A DNA stretch of 64,000 nucleotides. Source: Candidatus Bathyarchaeota archaeon (lineage in GTDB: Archaea > Thermoproteota > Bathyarchaeia > Bathyarchaeales > Bathycorpusculaceae). Position 1 is the first letter of the stretch, and every line of letters begins with the position of its first letter. The notes under the pieces were generated by a model that saw nothing but the letters and a program-made list of their open reading frames with translations, had not been told where the DNA came from and did not search any database. Below, in pieces: positions 304 through 23,471 of the stretch. The translations under genes and the position numbers were made by a program. The DNA lies in the NCBI GenBank assembly GCA_963782525.1, contig CAWAKC010000005.1, positions 1 through 64,000 of the forward strand. The letters are read 5' to 3'.

Positions 304-1258
304 TTATGACAACTTTTCCTTTGACAAGTCCTTCACCAAGATACTGAAGCGCTTCAGGAACCTCAATTAACGAATACCGTTTATCAATAAATGGAACGAT
401 TTTGCCGGCTTCACAAAGCTCCGTTATATGAACCAAATCTTTTAGATTTGGTTGAACCGCCAGGATTCGTATTTTCTTGCCTGATGTTCTTCTAATCCAT
501 GGTCCCAGGAGCAAAATCTGGAAAAGTCTAGCTGCAGAACCTCCGACAGCAAAATAGCTTCCATTAGGCCTTAGCGCCCGCTTATAGGCGAAAACCGAAC
601 GATTCGCAATAACATCAAGTATCAGATCATACTGCTGTCCATTTTTGGTAAAGTCTTCCTTAGCGTAATCAATGACATGGTCAGCACCAAGCGAACGCAT
701 AAAATCCAGCTTGCCGGCGTTATCCACTCCAGTCACCTCAGCCCCGTATAACTTGGCAAGCTGCACTGCAAACATACCAGCACCGCCGCCAGCACCATTA
801 ATCAAAACCTTTTGCCCCGGCTGGACTTGTCCTTTATCTCGAATCCCCTGCAAAGCGATCACAGCACCTTGTGGAATTGTCGCTGCCTCCTCGAATGTCA
901 TACTGGTTGGTTTCAGCTCCAAGGTTTCTTCAAGAGCGCAGACATACTCAGCAAAACCACCCATACGAAACGAAGTGTCTCCGAAGACCTCATCCCCTAG
1001 TTGAAATCGACTTACGTTTCTGCCAATCATTTCAACGCGCCCAGCTATGTCCGATCCAAGTATTTTGCGCCGCGGTCTTAGAATACCCCCGAACCGCGCA
1101 AATAACGGTGTACCTGTCAATCCCTCCCAGTCAGATCTATTAACGGATACCGCCTGGACCTTAATCAGTACTTCATTGTCCTCGGGAAGAGGTCTCTCTA
1201 CCTCTTTGAGTTGAAGAACATCAGAAGAACCGTATTTTGTGTGGACAATCGCTTTCAT
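278..1258 (-). CDS. NAD(P)-dependent alcohol dehydrogenase/quinone oxidoreductase (MDR family)
   Basis: MKAIV...YGS.DVLQL start, GSDIAG, VLINGAGGGAG, GKVVI end; start taken at MKAIV. Confidence 0.92.
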   Translation of the reverse strand: MKAIVHTKYGSSDVLQLKEVERPLPEDNEVLIKVQAVSVNRSDWEGLTGTPLFARFGGILRPRRKILGSDIAGRVEMIGRNVSRFQLGDEVFGDTSFRMGGFAEYVCALEETLELKPTSMTFEEAATIPQGAVIALQGIRDKGQVQPGQKVLINGAGGGAGMFAVQLAKLYGAEVTGVDNAGKLDFMRSLGADHVIDYAKEDFTKNGQQYDLILDVIANRSVFAYKRALRPNGSYFAVGGSAARLFQILLLGPWIRRTSGKKIRILAVQPNLKDLVHITELCEAGKIVPFIDKRYSLIEVPEALQYLGEGLVKGKVVIIVKLNLDP

Positions 1259-1465
1259 TTGATATTCAGGAATAATTACTCTTAAGGATAATAGCATTTT
1301 GCCTTAAAAGTAAAACAGAAATTTTTTCGCACGCGTAAGTAAAAGCAGTTACTTCACATTTTCTGGGAAGAGTCTCTTTCCTTTCTCAGAATATTCGAAC
1401 ACAAGTCTTAAATCCAAATCCACAGATAACCCCCTAAAATGTCAATATGGGAGAGAGATAAGTCT

Positions 1466-1867
1466 ATGTTAGAAGATGTGAAAATAAATGTGAAGATAAA
1501 GCTTTCAGCATTATGGGTAGCTTTAATGTTTTTTTATTTATATAACGATGTTTTCGGATTCTATAGGCAAGATATAGTAGAGAAAGTACTATCAGGAGAA
1601 AAAGCGCTTAATCAAGTATTTTTGGTTGGAGCTGCAATATTAATGGCGATTCCGATTTTTATGATTTTCTTGTCCCTGGCATTGCCGGCTAAAGTGAATC
1701 GCCGGGTAAACATCATTGTAGGTATAGTCTATGCTGGTATTTTGGTCCCTGCACTGCTTGCACCAGGAGAGACTTGGGCTTATTATCTATTTTATGAGAT
1801 TTTAGAAGTTGTGTTTATTGCACTAATTGTTTGGCATGCATGGAAGTGGCCTAAACAGGAAGGTTAG
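1466..1867 (+). CDS. Four-TM membrane protein (DUF6326-like)
   Basis: KIKLSALWVALMFFYLY.D...AWKWP pattern; alternative start at 1439. Confidence 0.75.
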   Translation: MLEDVKINVKIKLSALWVALMFFYLYNDVFGFYRQDIVEKVLSGEKALNQVFLVGAAILMAIPIFMIFLSLALPAKVNRRVNIIVGIVYAGILVPALLAPGETWAYYLFYEILEVVFIALIVWHAWKWPKQEG

Positions 1868-2188
1868 CCTTCTCCTTCTCTTTTCAGAATCAGGTGCGCT
1901 CTATTCCCATTTTCCACTGCTTTGCTTAAACTGCATCTGAACCACACGGCAATCCTAACGCCAAAGCGTTCTAGAGCCTTGTATCTCTTAGTTGCTGACC
2001 CCAATAAGAGGTACGGGACTGATCTCTTACGAATTTAGGGACAAACTTGCGGCTATTTCATTCCGCCAGTACCTCGCGTGGAATCTAAACGCTAGAACAA
2101 AAGGGGCAACCATCAAGATTTATGGACAAAAATTTAGCCCGATAAGCTGAAACAAACCAATTTTGAGGGTGAATTGAGAAAAGGAGCG

Positions 2189-2275
2189 TGGCGCGGGATG
2201 TGGGAATTGAACCCACGCGGCCTTTCGACCACAGACTTAGCAGGCCTGCCCCATACCAGGCTTGGGGAATCCCGC
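2189..2275 (-). tRNA. tRNA-Ser(GCT), long variable arm, encoded CCA
   Basis: Acceptor GCGGGAT/ATCCCGC, G discriminator plus CCA, anticodon arm CAGGC-CTGCTAA-GTCTG, T arm GTGGG-TTCAATT-CCCAC. Confidence 0.95.
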
Positions 2276-2528
2276 ACACGCTGGAAAGTATCTTCTAAGC
2301 CTGTTTCAGCCAAACCATTATACTGTATTTCAATTAAACCTTTCTGGAAATAAAAACTAGTGGCTTGACGCTCTTTGCATTAAGCATCACATTTGGCTGT
2401 GCGAAAACTTTCTGGTTTTCTCTGCTTTTCGTTTTTTGATGGAGAAGGTATCAACATGGTTTAAAAGGTTGACTTTGTTAAGTATTCTTTGCAGGGTTTT
2501 CCTGCGTTATGAATCGATTGGTGGTTGA

Positions 2529-2960
2529 ATGGGGATTAAGCTTTCAAAATCTGATATAGCGTTCATTAAGCAGTTACCAGTTTGCCGTCTTGCAACAGCG
2601 ACCGAGGAATGTGAGCCTGTTGTTAGGCCTGTTTGGGCTATTTTTGATGGGGCAAACATCTACTTTGCATCTGACCCAGACACCCCTAAACTGGAGCATA
2701 TCGAAGCAAACCCGCAGGTATCATTGGTTTTTGATGATTATGACGAAAAGAACTGGTCCACCATCAAAGGCATCCGCGTGCAGGGCGAAGCGGAAATTAT
2801 GTGGAACGGCAAAGAATACCGCTACGCGCACGATCTGCTCAAGGAAAAGTATCCTGAGTATGCTAGTCCTGAAGGCAGCTGGAAAGAAGGCGACGTACCA
2901 ATAATCAAGGTTACGCCGATATCTTACAATAAATGGTCTTCGGGGCAATGGAAAAAATAA
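2529..2960 (+). CDS. Pyridoxamine 5'-phosphate oxidase-like flavin/F420-binding protein
   Basis: CRLAT...P.VRPVW...K...I.ANPQVSLVFD...V.GEA split-barrel pattern. Confidence 0.85.
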   Translation: MGIKLSKSDIAFIKQLPVCRLATATEECEPVVRPVWAIFDGANIYFASDPDTPKLEHIEANPQVSLVFDDYDEKNWSTIKGIRVQGEAEIMWNGKEYRYAHDLLKEKYPEYASPEGSWKEGDVPIIKVTPISYNKWSSGQWKK

Positions 2961-2990
2961 ATCGCCCTAAACCACTTTAGCGCTTTTTTG

Positions 2991-3281
2991 TTAGGGAAGG
3001 ATTTGGTATAGCGCAAAGTAAGAAGTGTAGTATATTCCCACTAGCATGAACACGACTCCAAGAATCACTATCCATAATCCTCGGTTGCGGGTTGTACCGC
3101 AGTCAAGCCTGTAAACGTGTGCACCAAGCGCTATTGATGCGGCACCGAAAATTTCTGGAAGAATAAACAAGGCGATGACCGCACAGAAAATGCCTATGTA
3201 CGAATACAGTCCAGCGTTTTGTTTTGGCTGGGTATTATACGTCGGATAATTTGGGGTTTGATTGCTGCTTTTTAAAAACAA
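2991..3281 (-). CDS. Small membrane protein
   Basis: Hydrophobic helices; RBS-like ggtga upstream. Confidence 0.65.
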   Translation of the reverse strand: MFLKSSNQTPNYPTYNTQPKQNAGLYSYIGIFCAVIALFILPEIFGAASIALGAHVYRLDCGTTRNRGLWIVILGVVFMLVGIYYTSYFALYQILP

Positions 3282-3408
3282 GTTTTCACCATTATGCAGT
3301 GAATTATTTTTTGTATAATAACTTTCCGATGCTTGGACAAGAAGTAGCTTTTAAGTTTAAAGATGCCTAACCCCAAAATTTTATAGCTCAGGCAGCTTAA
3401 CGGGGATT

Positions 3409-4188
3409 GTGCAGAACATCGATCCCCTCTTTATAATTCAACCCGTCATCGTCATCATTGTAACCTCAGCTCTGATGGTATATTGGTACTTTAAACGGCA
3501 CTTTCACAAACAAGTTTGGCTTTACTCGCTGTTAGCCTACGGAGCTGCAATCGCCTTGAAGTATGCAGCGCAGATTCCAACAATCACCCCAGTAACAAAT
3601 ATGTTTGGAGCCCACAGTGTTGGATTGGGCATCTATTATGGCTTGCAAACGGTGGTTTTTGAGGTTGGCTTAGCTTTTGTAGTTGCCTGGTGGGCGGTTT
3701 CATACGGAAAACTCGCAAAGAAGGATGCTGAAGCTTATGGTTCTGGGCTGGCGTTTTGGGAAAACGCCGCTTTCCTAAGTGCGCTGTCCCTGGTCAATCT
3801 GGTTTCCTATTACGTTATTCTGTCGAACAACAGCTCTCTTGCACAAACTCTCTACAACCAGCTGAATACTAATGCGCCTGGACTTTTTGCACCTGCTTCC
3901 GAGGCGTTGCGTTCGGTGGCTTTGGGCACTGTTGAGCGGGTTTCATCAATCATGATTCATTTTGCCTGGGGCTACCTCTGCATAATGGCTGCAGTCTACC
4001 GTAAAAAATGGTTGTTCCTAATCGCATTGCCCATGGGGTTTGTGGATTTTCTGGTTCCTTTTGCTCAGAACTCTTTAGTTGTGTTTGAGGCTGTAGTTTT
4101 TGCGTTGGCGGTAGTCTCTGTTGCAGTGGCGTGGTATGCGACAAGACAAGTAAGAAAAAACATTAAAAACCAACTACCCGTATCCTGA
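3409..4188 (+). CDS. YhfC/PrsW-like intramembrane glutamic protease family protein
   Basis: Multi-TM; VFE, G.GLAFWEN and ERVSSIMIH motifs. Confidence 0.7.
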   Translation: MQNIDPLFIIQPVIVIIVTSALMVYWYFKRHFHKQVWLYSLLAYGAAIALKYAAQIPTITPVTNMFGAHSVGLGIYYGLQTVVFEVGLAFVVAWWAVSYGKLAKKDAEAYGSGLAFWENAAFLSALSLVNLVSYYVILSNNSSLAQTLYNQLNTNAPGLFAPASEALRSVALGTVERVSSIMIHFAWGYLCIMAAVYRKKWLFLIALPMGFVDFLVPFAQNSLVVFEAVVFALAVVSVAVAWYATRQVRKNIKNQLPVS

Positions 4189-6485: not shown

Positions 6486-9369
<2,884 letters not shown>

Positions 9370-18507: not shown

Positions 18508-18867
18508 TTAAGACAAACCCTGACCGCTAAAGTTTAAAGCCAAGCCAACATTAATGATAGAAACCACCAAAAACAAAGCGAAAAAGCGATGTAGGGGCCG
18601 TCGGCTAGTTTGGTCCAGGCTTGTAGCCTCGGGCGCTATAGACCCCGGTTCAAATCCGGGCGGCCCCACCAAGCTACTTTTAAATTCACTATAATTAGCG
18701 TTATTTTGAATAGAAACAAGTGAATATCCGTTAACTAGCAGTTTTAGGTGGTTTTCAAACGTTTTACTTAAGTTGAAGCCTAATTCCTTCGACTTTAAAA
18801 CTAATTCTTTGTCCAGATATACTACAACATTACCTTGGTTGGCAATTGCATTCGCATCCAAGCGCAT
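18508..18867 (-). mobile_element. Putative N-terminal fragment (intN) of a tRNA-split SSV-type integrase with RHH/CcdA-like N-terminus
   Basis: ORF reads antisense through the tRNA-Pro 3' half (LVGPPGFEPGS); N-terminus VVVYLDKELV.KSKELGFNLSKTFE resembles an RHH fold. Confidence 0.5.
18594..18671 (+). tRNA. tRNA-Pro(CGG), encoded CCA
   Basis: GGGGCCG/CGGCCCC acceptor, GTAGC-CTCGGGC-GCTAT anticodon arm, CCCGG-TTCAAAT-CCGGG. Confidence 0.96.
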
Positions 18868-19047: not shown

Positions 19048-19533
19048 TTGATAACAAAAATTCTTGTGGGAGTAGATGGTTCTAAAAATTCGGAAAAGGC
19101 TTTGGATTATGCTCTTGAAATTGCTGAAAAGTTTTCTGCGTCTGTTTTAATCCTTAACGTTTTTCAGCCGCCGCCAGAATTTGGATACCAGGCAAACACG
19201 TTTTCGCAGTTTCCAATGTCTGGATATCCCCAAGATACAATTGGTAACCAGTCGAACAATTCCGCATTTATAAAAGACCTTCGAAAAGCGCATGAAGCAG
19301 TTTTGTCCAAAGCCGCTGAAAGGGCGATTAAACTAAAACCCGTGCTTAAAATCACCACTGAACTAAAAGAAGGAAACATATCATCTCAGATAGTTGAAAC
19401 TGCTGCAAATGGAGCCTTTGATTTAATAGTCGTGGGTCATTTTGGGGAAAGTGAAATCAAGGAATTCTTTCTTGGTAGCACAAGTGAAAGAGTTGTCCAC
19501 CAGGCAAGATGCGCGGTGCTAATTGTCAAATGA
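19048..19533 (+). CDS. Universal stress protein (UspA family)
   Basis: KILVGVDGS, DLIVVG, FLGSTSERVV..A.C.VLIVK. Confidence 0.93.
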   Translation: MITKILVGVDGSKNSEKALDYALEIAEKFSASVLILNVFQPPPEFGYQANTFSQFPMSGYPQDTIGNQSNNSAFIKDLRKAHEAVLSKAAERAIKLKPVLKITTELKEGNISSQIVETAANGAFDLIVVGHFGESEIKEFFLGSTSERVVHQARCAVLIVK

Positions 19534-20083: not shown

Positions 20084-20929
20084 ATGAAAACATCCAAGAC
20101 CGCGACGTTAATCACCATATTGGCAATAATCGCCTTATCAGCATTCTGCTCAACAACCTACGCTATAACAGGAAACAGTCAACCTGACTCAACCCCGCAC
20201 ATCGGCGTCGTAGTGCTTTTCAACGATGCAGCCATGACACAGCCAATCAGCGTAAGCAGCGGCGTCCTCATTTCGCCAACCGTTGTATTAACCGCCGGCC
20301 ACAGCGTCATAGGCGGAGTAGTTGCATGCGTCTGCTTTGACAAAGGGCCAATCACCTACGCAATCGACGAAACAGGCAAAATTCATTGCAACACCAACCA
20401 ACCGATTTACTCCGGCGTTCCAATACCCTTCCCAACATATCTTGCAAGCATAGTAGCCGGGGCAAAAGACAGCAAACTCCTCCAAACAAGCGACGTTGGC
20501 ATAATCATTCTAAACACGCCCGTTCAAGAAGTACAGAGTTATCCCGCACTTCCTACCCCTGGATTAGCAGATACTTTACCTGTGAAAACTGCTTTGCAAG
20601 TGACTGGTTACGGAGTCCAAAATCCATTTAAAGTAAATGATCTCCCACCATTAGCCGGAAGTATTTCCCGCAACTCAGCCACTGTAAACTTGCTGTCAAC
20701 TCACTTTCAAGGAAGCGACAACTACCTCAAATGCTCATCGAATGCTGCCCAGGGCAAAGGCGGAGTTGCCTACGGCGACTCAGGCGGACCAGTGCTATAC
20801 AATGACAATGGACAAGCAACCGTTTTGGCTGTAAACGCATACGTTAACAACGGGAATTGTGCAGGCGTTACTTTCCACACGAGAATTGACAACCCAGAAA
20901 TCCTCGATTGGATCAAGGGTTACATCTAA
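20084..20929 (+). CDS. Secreted S1 (chymotrypsin/trypsin-fold) serine protease
   Basis: Signal peptide; catalytic triad motifs VLTAGH, SDVGII, GDSGGP. Confidence 0.92.
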   Translation: MKTSKTATLITILAIIALSAFCSTTYAITGNSQPDSTPHIGVVVLFNDAAMTQPISVSSGVLISPTVVLTAGHSVIGGVVACVCFDKGPITYAIDETGKIHCNTNQPIYSGVPIPFPTYLASIVAGAKDSKLLQTSDVGIIILNTPVQEVQSYPALPTPGLADTLPVKTALQVTGYGVQNPFKVNDLPPLAGSISRNSATVNLLSTHFQGSDNYLKCSSNAAQGKGGVAYGDSGGPVLYNDNGQATVLAVNAYVNNGNCAGVTFHTRIDNPEILDWIKGYI

Positions 20930-20969
20930 ATTAACATTGATAATTTGAAAAAAAATAGAGGTGAAACAA

Positions 20970-21026
20970 ATGAACCAAAAACGTGCAATAAAAGCTAAAG
21001 GAAACATCAATTGGGGCGGCTGGTAA
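20970..21026 (+). CDS. 18-aa Trp-terminal peptide MNQKRAIKAKGNINWGGW, putative prenylated-peptide precursor (not in ORF track)
   Basis: GAGGTGA RBS at 20958-20964, ATG at 20970, TAA at 21024-21026, followed by a stable hairpin. Confidence 0.75.
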   Translation: MNQKRAIKAKGNINWGGW

Positions 21027-21039
21027 AATAGATTCAAAC

Positions 21040-21065
21040 TGGTGCCTTCGTTGGCACCAATTTTT
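21040..21065 (+). terminator. Stem-loop plus T-tract after the peptide gene
   Basis: tggtgcc-ttcgtt-ggcacca then a-ttttt. Confidence 0.75.
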
Positions 21066-21129
21066 AATTTTTAATCTTAATTTTAGATTCTTAACTTACA
21101 AATACATTGGATTATGATTATTAATAGCT

Positions 21130-22131
21130 ATGAAAGAGACTTCGTTAACACAGAATGCAATGAGCATTATACAAAGCAGAGGGCAATTTGGACTATTACA
21201 CGCTTGCAAAAAAATAATGGCAAACCAGTATGACAACGGAACAGTCTGTGAAGCACTACAATATTATGCCCAAACAGTCCTTCCAAATGTTCTCCCGATT
21301 TTTCCAGCCTTAATTTATCTCTCCAGCAAAGCTAGTGGTGCTATCCCCAAAAACTTGCAACCAATAGCCGCTGCGATGTTGCTCATAACGTCATCAGGCG
21401 ACATCCACGACGACATAGTGGATAATTCAACACGAAAATTTTCAAGAAAAACGGTTGTTGGCAAATACGGCAAAGACATTGCCCTTTTGGCAGGCGATCT
21501 GCTGCTAATTCAAGGAATGTCAGCACTTCAATACGAATGCAACCTGTCGAATAAGCAAAAGAAAATACTTTTAGATTTAGTTGCTGCATCTATGGTTGAA
21601 ATTGTGAAGGCTGAAGCCCGCGAGGCATCGCTGTGGCAGAAGGTAGATGTGACGCCAGAAGAGTATTTTGAGGTAATTAAGCTAAAGGGCGGCGTTGCAG
21701 AGCTTCATTGCAAAATCGGCGGGATAATCGGCGGCGGAGACGAAGAAATCATCGACGATTTGGCGCGTTATGGTAGGGTAATAGGAATATTATCTACCTT
21801 AAAGGAAGAGTTTGTAGATATGTCAAGTTCTGTCGAGCTTGATCATAGAATTAAACGTGAATTGCCACCTTATCCGATGCTTTGTGCCCTGCAGAATAAA
21901 GCATCAAATTACGCGCTCGCATTCTCCAGAAGAGCAAAGTTTTCCTTGACGGATCTGCGGAGAGTTTCAGAGACGGTGCTGTGTTCCTTGGCGGTTGAAG
22001 AGTTAAACGCTGAGTTCAGGGAATTTGGAAGAAAAGAATTAGAGGATAACCAGCTGTTAAAGGGCAATGAGCGGGCGGGGGAGTTAGTGGTGTTGCTTGA
22101 AGCTTTAACAGAAGAATTGGCTATTGTTTAG
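21130..22131 (+). CDS. Divergent polyprenyl-synthase-fold (class I isoprenoid) enzyme, putative ComQ-like peptide prenyltransferase
   Basis: DIHDDIVD first Asp motif and ALLAGDLL retained; GKxxRP absent; second motif degenerate (LKEEFVD). Confidence 0.8.
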   Translation: MKETSLTQNAMSIIQSRGQFGLLHACKKIMANQYDNGTVCEALQYYAQTVLPNVLPIFPALIYLSSKASGAIPKNLQPIAAAMLLITSSGDIHDDIVDNSTRKFSRKTVVGKYGKDIALLAGDLLLIQGMSALQYECNLSNKQKKILLDLVAASMVEIVKAEAREASLWQKVDVTPEEYFEVIKLKGGVAELHCKIGGIIGGGDEEIIDDLARYGRVIGILSTLKEEFVDMSSSVELDHRIKRELPPYPMLCALQNKASNYALAFSRRAKFSLTDLRRVSETVLCSLAVEELNAEFREFGRKELEDNQLLKGNERAGELVVLLEALTEELAIV

Positions 22132-22223
22132 TTGCTGATTGGGAATATGTATTCATTGTATTATGTATTACTTCTTAGGATTTATAATCAATCAGGGCTA
22201 TCTGTTAAATCAGCCTGCCCAAA

Positions 22224-23471
22224 ATGCTAAACAACCCAATCACTAAAATAGCGTCACTCCCAAAGGAAGCGTTAGTAAGCACCTTTTTGGTGGCGAACGC
22301 TTTTGTCTGGTATCTCAGCGGATACAGCTTTCTGCAAAATGCCACAATCTCAAGATTCGGGAATACTTCTCTGTTGATTATTGCTACTGCCAATTTCGCA
22401 AGCCTTGTTTTATCCGCTTTTGCAGTTTCGTTAGTAACAAGCAAATTCAAGAGACGACCTGTCTTTCTCAAATACTGGATCCTCGCAGGCGCATTACTTT
22501 CGGTCTTATTTGCGATCATCAACTTAGCAGACTTTGTCGGCTTACTAGTTTTGGCAAGCCTAATAGGCGTTTACTTCGGCATAGGCATGCCAGTATGCAT
22601 GGGCTATTACGCTAAGTCCACAGCTCCACAAAACCGTGCCAAATTAAGCGGAATAATAATTCTGTTAATTGGCTTAGGTTATCCATTAATTTCGATAATC
22701 GGAAGGAACGAAACCATCCTTTTAGCCGCCTCTTTAGGTGTTTGGCAAATCCTTGGCTTGATTTCTGTATTATTTATTAAATCTGTCGAACCACTTGTGG
22801 AGCAAAAAGAACGCGTATCATACCGTTCAGTAATTTCAAACAAAACCTTTCTTCTTTACGCTGCTCCCTGGCTGATGTTTTCTCTAATCAACCAGTTAAC
22901 AATGGAGTTGAACACTCATTATTTTAGCAGCGGCACATTTCCAGCGGTGTTAGGGCAAAACTTCCTCCTAATCGAAAACATTTTGGCTGGTGCCTCCGCG
23001 ATAATCTGCGGGTTTTTAGCTGATAAGAAGGGTCGAAAGCGTTTGGCGCTGGTAGGTTTCGTTCTTCTAGGAGTTGGCTATGCATCTTTAGGGCTTTTCA
23101 GCGGCAACTATTTTGCAGTATGGTTCTACGTTTGCGTCGACGGCGTTGCCTGGGGTGCCTTCTCCATGCTGTTTTTAGTTACAATCTGGGGGGACATAGC
23201 GCAAGAAAAAAGTAGCGAAAAATACTATTTTCTTGGGGTACTGCCGTACTTACTCTCTAATTTGGCGGGCGTGTTAACAGGAACGTACGTTTCGGCTAAT
23301 GTTCAAGAACGTACGGTTTTCTCGTTTGCAAGCTTCTTCCTTTTCGTGGCAGTATTGCCGTTGGTTTATGCTCCAGAAACCCTGCCCAATAGAATACTGA
23401 AAAATCTTGACTTAAACAGCTATGTGAATAAGGCTTTGGAAAAAGTAAAGGAAAGTAATATAAAAACTTGA
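22224..23471 (+). CDS. MFS transporter
   Basis: About 12 TM helices, GFLADKKGRKR motif A, PETL C-terminal motif. Confidence 0.9.
   Translation: MLNNPITKIASLPKEALVSTFLVANAFVWYLSGYSFLQNATISRFGNTSLLIIATANFASLVLSAFAVSLVTSKFKRRPVFLKYWILAGALLSVLFAIINLADFVGLLVLASLIGVYFGIGMPVCMGYYAKSTAPQNRAKLSGIIILLIGLGYPLISIIGRNETILLAASLGVWQILGLISVLFIKSVEPLVEQKERVSYRSVISNKTFLLYAAPWLMFSLINQLTMELNTHYFSSGTFPAVLGQNFLLIENILAGASAIICGFLADKKGRKRLALVGFVLLGVGYASLGLFSGNYFAVWFYVCVDGVAWGAFSMLFLVTIWGDIAQEKSSEKYYFLGVLPYLLSNLAGVLTGTYVSANVQERTVFSFASFFLFVAVLPLVYAPETLPNRILKNLDLNSYVNKALEKVKESNIKT

Follow-up and report, generated by a model that had tools for sequence, protein, structure and literature searches.

A conserved Trp-ended peptide gene, a prenyl-synthase-derived enzyme and an MFS transporter form a candidate peptide prenylation locus in Bathyarchaeia

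Introduction

Enzymes derived from trans-type isoprenyl diphosphate synthases (trans-IDS) can attach prenyl groups to the Trp residues of peptides, a chemistry that has so far come from a handful of bacterial systems (ComQ, PalQ, ChrPC and StheQ). The trans-IDS-like prenyltransferases ComQ, PalQ and ChrPC-P (the P domain of ChrPC) are described as all targeting a peptide Trp, with the second Asp-rich motif (SARM) of these enzymes repurposed for Trp recognition (PMC13290415). In the account of ComX168 the Trp modified by ComQ is third from the end (PMC13731918). PalQ is reported to prenylate C3 of the C-terminal Trp in the core DNVRRFFW using C5-C15 donors, with Q197 as an indole contact (PMC10853753), and is described as needing a terminal Trp, GW and GGW endings being its more favorable motifs (PMC13290415). 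StheQ of Sphaerobacter thermophilus is reported to prenylate the Trp second from the C-terminus and to hold a single Mg2+ at the first Asp-rich motif (FARM) and none at its pseudo-SARM; the same preprint gives the pseudo-SARM of ComQ as NDxxx (bioRxiv 10.64898/2026.08.29.745113). Ord1, which shares the trans-IDS fold, is described as acting on free Trp or indole (PMC13290415; 10.64898/2026.08.29.745113). Here we analyze a locus at positions 20,084 to 23,471 of a 64,000-nucleotide stretch of DNA (the window) from a Candidatus Bathyarchaeota archaeon (GenBank assembly GCA_963782525.1, contig CAWAKC010000005.1), in which an enzyme of this fold is encoded beside an 18-residue peptide that ends in Trp and a transporter of the major facilitator superfamily (MFS).

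The original prediction for this locus, made from sequence, was an archaeal ComQ/ComX-like prenylated-peptide system built from four co-oriented genes. Reading of the open reading frames (ORFs) together with Pfam matches bears out the layout: an S1 protease, the 18-residue ORF, an enzyme with the polyprenyl_synt fold and an MFS transporter all lie on the plus strand. The window locus thereby unites the precursor, modifying enzyme, transporter and optional protease that serve as the criterion for a cluster making peptides that are built on the ribosome and modified after translation (RiPPs). The core of the earlier interpretation, a peptide, a prenyl-synthase-derived enzyme and an exporter, is supported, but membership in the ComQ family is not. 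We consider it reasonably probable, from the comparisons below, that the C-terminal Trp (W18) of this leaderless ribosomal peptide is prenylated and that the product is then exported by the MFS protein. The literature that we searched, with supplements outside its scope, yielded no archaeal trans-IDS-like peptide prenyltransferase, in agreement with the earlier remark that no described archaeal example was known, and the main text of a 2025 survey of archaeal RiPPs contains neither "prenyl" nor "Bathyarchae" nor "tryptophan" (PMC12144867).

Results

The window locus lies on contig C5 of its genome (G000), which carries a second copy of the module on contig C4; the source labels of homologous proteins assign the organism to Bathyarchaeia. 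For comparison, we searched first 61 related genomes and afterwards 120 from the genus, which gave 39 genus loci, and a scan of GTDB supplied 79 related loci, each representing a species. We call a small ORF type A when it lies upstream of the enzyme on the same strand, and type B when it lies between the enzyme stop and the MFS start, on the opposite strand. The peptide of the window, MNQKRAIKAKGNINWGGW, is of type A and has a basic N-terminal half and a conserved GGW at its C-terminus. In a DNA alignment of seven loci GAGGTGAAA at the Shine-Dalgarno (SD) site is invariant, and conservation extends over the SD, the start and the codons at either end of the ORF (the N-terminal ones and the final six), against 47% identity in the sequence upstream. 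Among the ungapped sequences of six close loci the small ORF is 77% identical and its flanks 47-48%, and pairwise differences at the first, second and third codon positions of the ORF number 47, 54 and 92, a concentration at the third position. A hidden Markov model (HMM) of the type A family, run against all 172,543 stop-to-stop ORF tails of the genome, gave the window ORF as its sole significant match (E 7.8e-6; next best 0.53). A same-strand ORF ahead of the enzyme recurs among the genus loci down to 38% enzyme identity, with a basic N-terminal half followed by [WF]-G-G-W or A/T/S-G-W-[YHV]. The small ORF between protease and enzyme is a real, conserved gene under coding constraint. Its last Trp never varies, whereas the position of W15 is occupied in relatives by Phe or another residue or is absent; the earlier proposal that either W15 or W18 is modified is thus narrowed to W18, the predicted modification site.

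Neighboring Trp peptides beside homologs of the enzyme had been named beforehand as a test of the proposal, which comes through it well. A rule chosen before the scan required a Trp among the final four residues, three or more Lys or Arg ahead of it, and a start codon giving 9-30 amino acids. Cationic small ORFs of this kind were found in the type A or type B zone at 72 of the 79 loci, with a type B candidate at 60. Candidates occur at 1.18 per kb inside the two zones, and the rest of these loci has 0.16 per kb. Of the seven loci that the rule missed, three (L076, L078 and L085) do have a Trp ORF, which uses a conserved ATA start after GGTGGGG. The type B ORFs encode 12-15 amino acids, and an alignment of 59 of them yields the pattern M-K-x-x-K-[PILV]-[IV]-R-x(1-4)-G-W-x(0-2); an SD-like 4-mer precedes 46 of these 59 starts, compared with 679 of 5000 random start codons. 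The main difference between the two types is an x-K-P segment inserted in type A, and precursors overall range from 12 to 21 residues.

Where a locus has both types, their last five residues agree at four or five positions, yet the tails vary between loci (SFGGW/SFGGW, SAGWH/STGWH, SSGWV/SSGWV, SAGWM/SAGWM, SMGWW/SMGWW, WSGWL/WSGWL and others). In a permutation test none of 10,000 shuffles reached the observed sum of agreements, a significance that is overstated because related loci are not independent, and one computed on a set that includes noise in the form of some false type A candidates picked by the loose rule. Gene conversion could contribute to the agreement; with or without it, the peptide tail behaves as a functional unit that is read by locus-specific machinery.

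In the widespread form of the module an opposite-strand peptide gene lies between enzyme and MFS, and the copy in the window is a derived, second one. The genome's other, fuller copy lies on the minus strand of contig C4 (L119:4357-8146), where the order is a divergent leuS, an IDS-like enzyme of 336 residues, a convergent 13-residue ORF (at about 7075-7116, plus strand), an MFS protein of 442 residues and a radical SAM/SPASM gene of family TIGR04084 (376 residues). The type B ORF of this copy encodes MKKPIRPIRGYWW, 13 amino acids, and has a GGAG site.

The canonical motifs GGKRxR, RRG, DDxxD and C-terminal GK of isoprenyl diphosphate synthases bind isopentenyl diphosphate (IPP) and its diphosphate. 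A canonical geranylgeranyl diphosphate (GGPP) synthase is encoded elsewhere in the genome (L120:1692-2762), beside an IPP isomerase and an isopentenyl phosphate kinase, and has the motifs GGKRWRP, DDIED, RRGKP, KT, FQMQDDILD and GDITEGKRS. Aligned with it, the IDS-like proteins show a gap at GGKRxR, x-K in place of RRG and [DE]-E-F-x-D in place of DDxxD, and the loop with the C-terminal GK is deleted; all 75 aligned members have these losses, as do the genus loci apart from the frameshifted L007 (38 of 39). The FARM has fared otherwise: the window enzyme keeps HDDIVD, HDD[IV][IV]D is found in every genus locus except L007, and D94, D95 and D98 of the motif are invariant in the 75 sequences. 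K186 is likewise invariant, and the lysine of the KT motif is kept. The earlier description of broken chain-elongation motifs therefore holds for the second motif, replaced by KEEFVD in the window enzyme, and for the IPP-binding elements, but not for the first motif. Because GGKRxR, RRG, DDxxD and the C-terminal GK have been lost, in contrast to the genome's canonical GGPP synthase, the enzyme appears not to be a chain-elongating synthase, and we propose that it is a peptide Trp prenyltransferase.

Other comparisons place the enzyme within the fold and at a distance from the annotated families. NCBIfam returned matches to 14 isoprenyl-diphosphate-synthase models, all far under cut-off (the best 90.5 bits against 468). 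An AlphaFold2 model (mean predicted local distance difference test score 92.8) has the trans-IDS fold, with the GGPP synthase of P. horikoshii (1wy0; template modeling score 0.82) as best Foldseek match and Ord1 at rank 31; by sequence as well as fold the nearest solved relative is this archaeal GGPP synthase. We considered the PDB matches as a classifier and set them aside, since with 1wy0 best and Ord1 mid-list they do not separate a peptide prenyltransferase from a synthase. In a FastTree phylogeny of 92 sequences the whole family sits on one long branch, apart from the genome's canonical GGPP synthase, with the window clade nested inside it.

An MFS homolog adjoins the enzyme in 70 of the 79 loci and in 35 of the 39 genus loci, and the nine loci without an adjacent one are mostly cut contigs or members of a kinase-linked class described below. 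The MFS protein is the enzyme's constant partner and, we propose, the exporter of the modified peptide. The protease has readable LTAGHS, SDVGII and GDSGGP motifs (His, Asp and Ser) in its translation, an N-terminus that looks signal-like by eye, and remote PDB matches to urokinase and kallikrein (E ~4e-4). It had been counted as a core part of the module, a status that it does not keep: homologs occur in 19 of the 79 loci (17 of 39 in the genus set), each followed directly by a type A peptide, and the protease is therefore an accessory part tied to this longer peptide. One clade (L004, L029 and L031, with L047, L049 and L053) lacks the protease gene and has a type A peptide that ends in WGGWG; a short ORF upstream still resembles the C-terminus of the protease (in L004, ..TFVTRIDTEQVLG), suggesting that the gene has decayed.

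The peptide-enzyme-MFS trio is tightly and widely linked. It is near-universal in the genus, and in many genomes it is syntenic with leuS and with a widespread radical SAM gene. The trio is also found in genomes of another class of the same phylum, whose enzyme relatives match over the full length at 206-283 bits. Of the 16 loci from this class (L145-L160), seven have peptides such as ..NPTPVRLWVPG, in tandem in three, and ten have MFS matches. Three of the loci, L147, L148 and L150, carry two tandem small ORFs (..MK[SN]YNPTPVRLWVPG) between enzyme and MFS.

Seven wetland or peat metatranscriptome runs contain 5-8% of the sampled words of the sequence. Contigs from the RNA libraries of four runs in four studies, 90-99% alike to the locus, align with stretches of all four genes (protease, peptide, enzyme and MFS); they come from a relative and not from this strain, may include DNA carry-over, and cover the locus in part (22628-22999, for example, is uncovered). 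One (X2) spans 20118-21005, from the protease into the peptide ORF, and another (X3, record 13) spans 20969-21119 and holds the whole peptide ORF and the hairpin that follows it. The locus of a close relative is thus present in RNA libraries of four studies, which is weak evidence that it is transcribed.

Discussion

Altogether these results lead us to favor a scheme in which the 18-residue peptide would be translated from its own short gene and the enzyme would hold an allylic prenyl diphosphate through its intact FARM and Mg2+. The C-terminal Trp of the peptide would take the place of IPP as acceptor, with alkylation of its indole in a reaction of the PalQ/ComQ/StheQ type. The resulting cationic prenyl-peptide would be exported by the MFS protein, and the secreted S1 protease could trim the longer type A peptide outside the cell. 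We infer prenyl transfer to W18, donor length, export and proteolytic maturation, along with a biological role as signal or antimicrobial. Since the peptides end in G-G-W, G-W or G-W-x, they are of the acceptor type that PalQ- and StheQ-like enzymes take. Among the features of the functional class of ComQ, PalQ, ChrPC-P and StheQ, the fold, the FARM, a remodeled acceptor site and SARM, and an adjacent small ORF with a Trp tail are found here.

Several observations weigh against this scheme. In place of the NDxxx of the ComQ pseudo-SARM, the 39 genus loci and the alignment have K/I-[DE]-E-F-x-D, with no Asn. The Gln ahead of the SARM that PalQ, where it stands three residues from the motif and contacts the indole NH, shares with Ord1 is replaced here by Thr, Ser or Gly (LSTLKEE, LMTIRDE, NSIIIEE and similar). 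The peptides are far shorter than ComX, PalX or StheX and have no recognizable leader domain, and Ord1 scores no better than ordinary synthases against the window enzyme. The peptide rule is unspecific when applied to the whole genome (3212 candidates, or 134 with a stricter regular expression), so that type B has to be argued from position, strand and alignability; in the same vein, a type B HMM trained on other genomes ranked the ORF of the C4 copy first among the 172,543 tails at an E of only 0.21. To these can be added the non-independence of the loci behind the tail test. It is also possible that the wide conservation of the module and its synteny with leuS reflect a housekeeping role unrelated to signaling.

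With the pseudo-SARM NDxxx and the conserved Gln missing and an archaeal GGPP synthase as nearest solved relative, membership in the ComQ family is not sustained. Nor does contig C5 show the linkage to a ComP-type kinase and ComA that goes with the ComQ family (IPR033965): a tblastn search with the HATPase_c domain gave 18 matches in the genome and none on this contig, in line with the earlier remark that no ComP/ComA-like receptor is visible. The precursors, at 12-21 amino acids in total, likewise have no NHLP-type leader of the kind described for PalX. Because the Gln and NDxxx are absent, the precursors are leaderless and the nearest relatives are archaeal synthases, we infer that a PalQ/ComQ/StheQ-like mechanism may have been reached on a separate branch.

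The closest parallel in acceptor is with PalQ and PalX of Paenibacillus alvei, as these have been described: an isoprenoid-synthase fold, the very C-terminal Trp of an adjacently encoded ribosomal peptide, and Gly as a favorable residue before it. The first and last acidic positions of the SARM are kept here, and one paralog class has an adjacent kinase gene. PalX differs in being much longer, with an NHLP leader and a cleavage at T72/D73 that is reported to leave an 8-residue core, whereas the present system has an archaeal host and a constant MFS partner. ComQ and ComX of Bacillus resemble it in the small ORF beside a trans-IDS-like enzyme, the retained FARM, the degenerate SARM and the Trp near the C-terminus, and their product is an exported prenyl-peptide, as we propose here. 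In the descriptions of that system, however, an internal Trp is modified and ComX has a long leader, whereas here the conserved Trp is last or next to last. StheQ and StheX offer a ComQ-like enzyme with an adjacent short ORF and a modified Trp second from the end, like the ..GW[YFH] peptides of many loci; they are bacterial, StheX has 69 residues, StheQ keeps N215, D216 and D219 as well as Q212, and no MFS partner is described for them in the portions of the account that we draw on.

Two relatives of the fold and one analog outside it complete the comparison. Ord1 (PDB 9V4G-J), an indole and free-Trp farnesyltransferase, matches the window enzyme in a PDB search (9v4h, E 7.5e-12; 100.5 bits with a profile) and is likewise non-canonical in the region aligned with GGKRxR, but it differs in its free small-molecule acceptor, in keeping RRS-KP after the FARM and in its Gln-centered relay, and it is 16-19% identical to our model. 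Canonical archaeal GGPP synthases, of which 1WY0 is the closest solved relative, share the FARM and the KT lysine; the genome's own is 15% identical and has neighbors of the mevalonate pathway, whereas the window enzyme is flanked by a peptide gene and an MFS gene. In the biosynthesis of microcin C, a bacterial system, the C-terminal Asn of the heptapeptide MccA is adenylated by MccB and the MFS pump MccC exports the product. The likeness lies in a very short ribosomal peptide, modification of its C-terminal residue by one enzyme and a dedicated MFS pump; the chemistry (adenylation of Asn), the unrelated enzymes and the bacterial host differ.

Public annotation offers one alternative, since homologs are named "geranylgeranyl pyrophosphate synthase" and the enzyme has the fold and FARM of a trans-IDS. 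That it is an ordinary geranylgeranyl or polyprenyl diphosphate synthase we nonetheless find scarcely credible, given that every NCBIfam synthase model scores far under its cut-off, that the four IPP-site elements are missing or altered in 75 of 75 members, and that the family sits on a long branch apart from the genome's canonical enzyme. A loss of the IPP site would suit any acceptor other than IPP, and the enzyme might act like Ord1 and prenylate free tryptophan or indole, or might prenylate some other small metabolite, with the MFS protein exporting the product while the small ORFs play regulatory, immunity or chaperone-like parts; Ord1, which has the trans-IDS fold and takes free Trp or indole as its acceptor, appears among the PDB matches, and this fits the idea. 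It leaves unexplained, however, why a Trp preceded by Gly stands at or next to the peptide C-terminus and why the A and B tails of one locus change together, and the Gln that Ord1 uses is absent here, all of which makes it an unlikely account.

In another alternative the peptide is scaffold or substrate for other or additional chemistry, such as cross-linking by the TIGR04084 protein or the release by the protease of a small molecule derived from Trp, in the manner of mycofactocin or pearlin-type pathways, with the IDS-like protein a non-transferase or of secondary importance. A TIGR04084 gene does follow the MFS gene in 52 of the 79 loci (two of them merely end fragments) and in the genome's second locus, whose protein scores 304 bits against a cut-off of 225 and has peptide maturases such as PapB and DynA as its other NCBIfam matches. 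Yet the window locus has no radical SAM gene. Across the phylum, 82 of 201 genomes have a member of the family above its cut-off; of 13 neighborhoods sampled from other families, 12 had neither an IDS-like nor an MFS gene next to it; and in the other-class genomes having the trio its coordinates place it far from the enzyme. With the radical SAM gene so often absent or unlinked, it is the IDS-like enzyme and the MFS protein that rank as constant partners of the peptide, and we see a slim chance for this explanation. Slighter still is the prospect that each small ORF is a leader peptide with a regulatory function, or else a conserved non-coding element, and that enzyme and MFS act in lipid or quinone metabolism. 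A terminator-like hairpin between the type A ORF and the enzyme could serve attenuation, and near-universality in the genus and leuS synteny in many genomes fit a core function. But type B ORFs, which run convergently to the enzyme and divergently from the MFS gene, cannot be upstream leaders, conservation is at the level of the peptide, with SD sites and third-position changes, and Rfam gave no match on the window locus or on five paralog loci; moreover, an enzyme that lacks the IPP site for chain elongation, in a genome with a canonical GGPP synthase elsewhere, sits poorly with such a role.

The prenylated-peptide reading can be extended, though with more doubt than confidence, to the idea that Thermoproteota (Bathyarchaeia and at least one other class) independently evolved near-universal, diffusible lipopeptide signals: leaderless, 12-21 residues long, prenylated on a C-terminal Trp and exported by MFS proteins. 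The donors might be long archaeal ones such as GGPP, and such a system could be the first archaeal peptide pheromone or quorum-sensing system. In this extension, kinase-linked paralogs would be the receptor-bearing version and the protease-linked type A peptides a second, processed signal. The paralogs in question (L014, L076, L078, L085 and L101) have a membrane HisKA/HATPase_c kinase directly upstream of the enzyme, an arrangement that echoes ComP and PalP. This class has no MFS gene (the coordinates in L014 are 1150-3756), and its small ORF ends in ..KPSGWY; in four of its five members the start of this ORF appears to be a conserved ATA lying 4-5 nt past GGTGGGG or GGAGTGGGG.

If the proposed chemistry is true, these loci would represent a very widespread archaeal class of RiPPs or lipopeptides that has escaped notice because the precursors are too short for gene calling and the enzyme goes under the name of GGPP synthase; hundreds of "geranylgeranyl pyrophosphate synthase" labels would then need correction. 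The locus would also provide an entry point to peptide signaling in uncultured Bathyarchaeia, as well as natural enzymes tuned to G-W C-termini that could be useful as biocatalysts for peptide lipidation.

Features of the locus and additional observations

The coordinates of the features are collected in Table 1. The element after the peptide gene is a predicted hairpin followed by a T-rich run and would be terminator-like; in the DNA alignment its stem is retained in relatives with changed sequence.

Table 1. Features of the locus, in window coordinates.
Feature	Position	Strand	Details
S1 (chymotrypsin-fold) serine protease	20084..20929	+	281 aa; Pfam Trypsin, E 1.6e-10
Shine-Dalgarno-like GAGGTGA	20958..20964	+	5 nt ahead of the start codon (ATG) of the peptide
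Type A precursor peptide gene	20970..21026	+	18 aa, MNQKRAIKAKGNINWGGW; conservation, family HMM
Terminator-like hairpin, then T-rich run	21040..21069	+	stem TGGTGCC/GGCACCA, 7 bp; hairpin scan
trans-IDS-fold enzyme	21130..22131	+	333 aa; Pfam PF00348 polyprenyl_synt, E 8.5e-18
MFS transporter, proposed exporter	22224..23471	+	415 aa; Pfam MFS_1, E 5.7e-13

We had also considered the TIGR04084 gene after the MFS gene as strong evidence for a RiPP pathway and set this aside, the family being widespread and mostly unlinked; it counts as weak support. Proteins of this family, AF0577-type radical SAM/SPASM proteins, reach 400-610 bits in many other families of the phylum, at one copy per genome. 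A "conserved upstream element" in L006, L008, L009, L013 and L017 resulted from out-of-frame reading of the leuS 5' end.

Some enzyme copies are broken (L007/L058, G029:C8:43091-44084; and G010:C1:67058-68065): one is split into ORFs of 149 and 238 residues beside a type A peptide ORF that is still intact, and the other has several in-frame stops. The contigs of L066 and L101 carry the archaeal module and are filed as bacterial metagenome-assembled genomes (Limnocylindrales and Sulfotelmatobacter), probably through binning error. A gene for a PadR-family regulator adjoins the enzyme in 11 of the 79 loci (L015, L016, L020 and L081 among them), mainly in other families of the order. In the window, a tRNA-Pro (CGG) lies at 18594-18671, about 1.4 kb upstream of the locus, with a universal stress protein gene (19048-19533) between the two.

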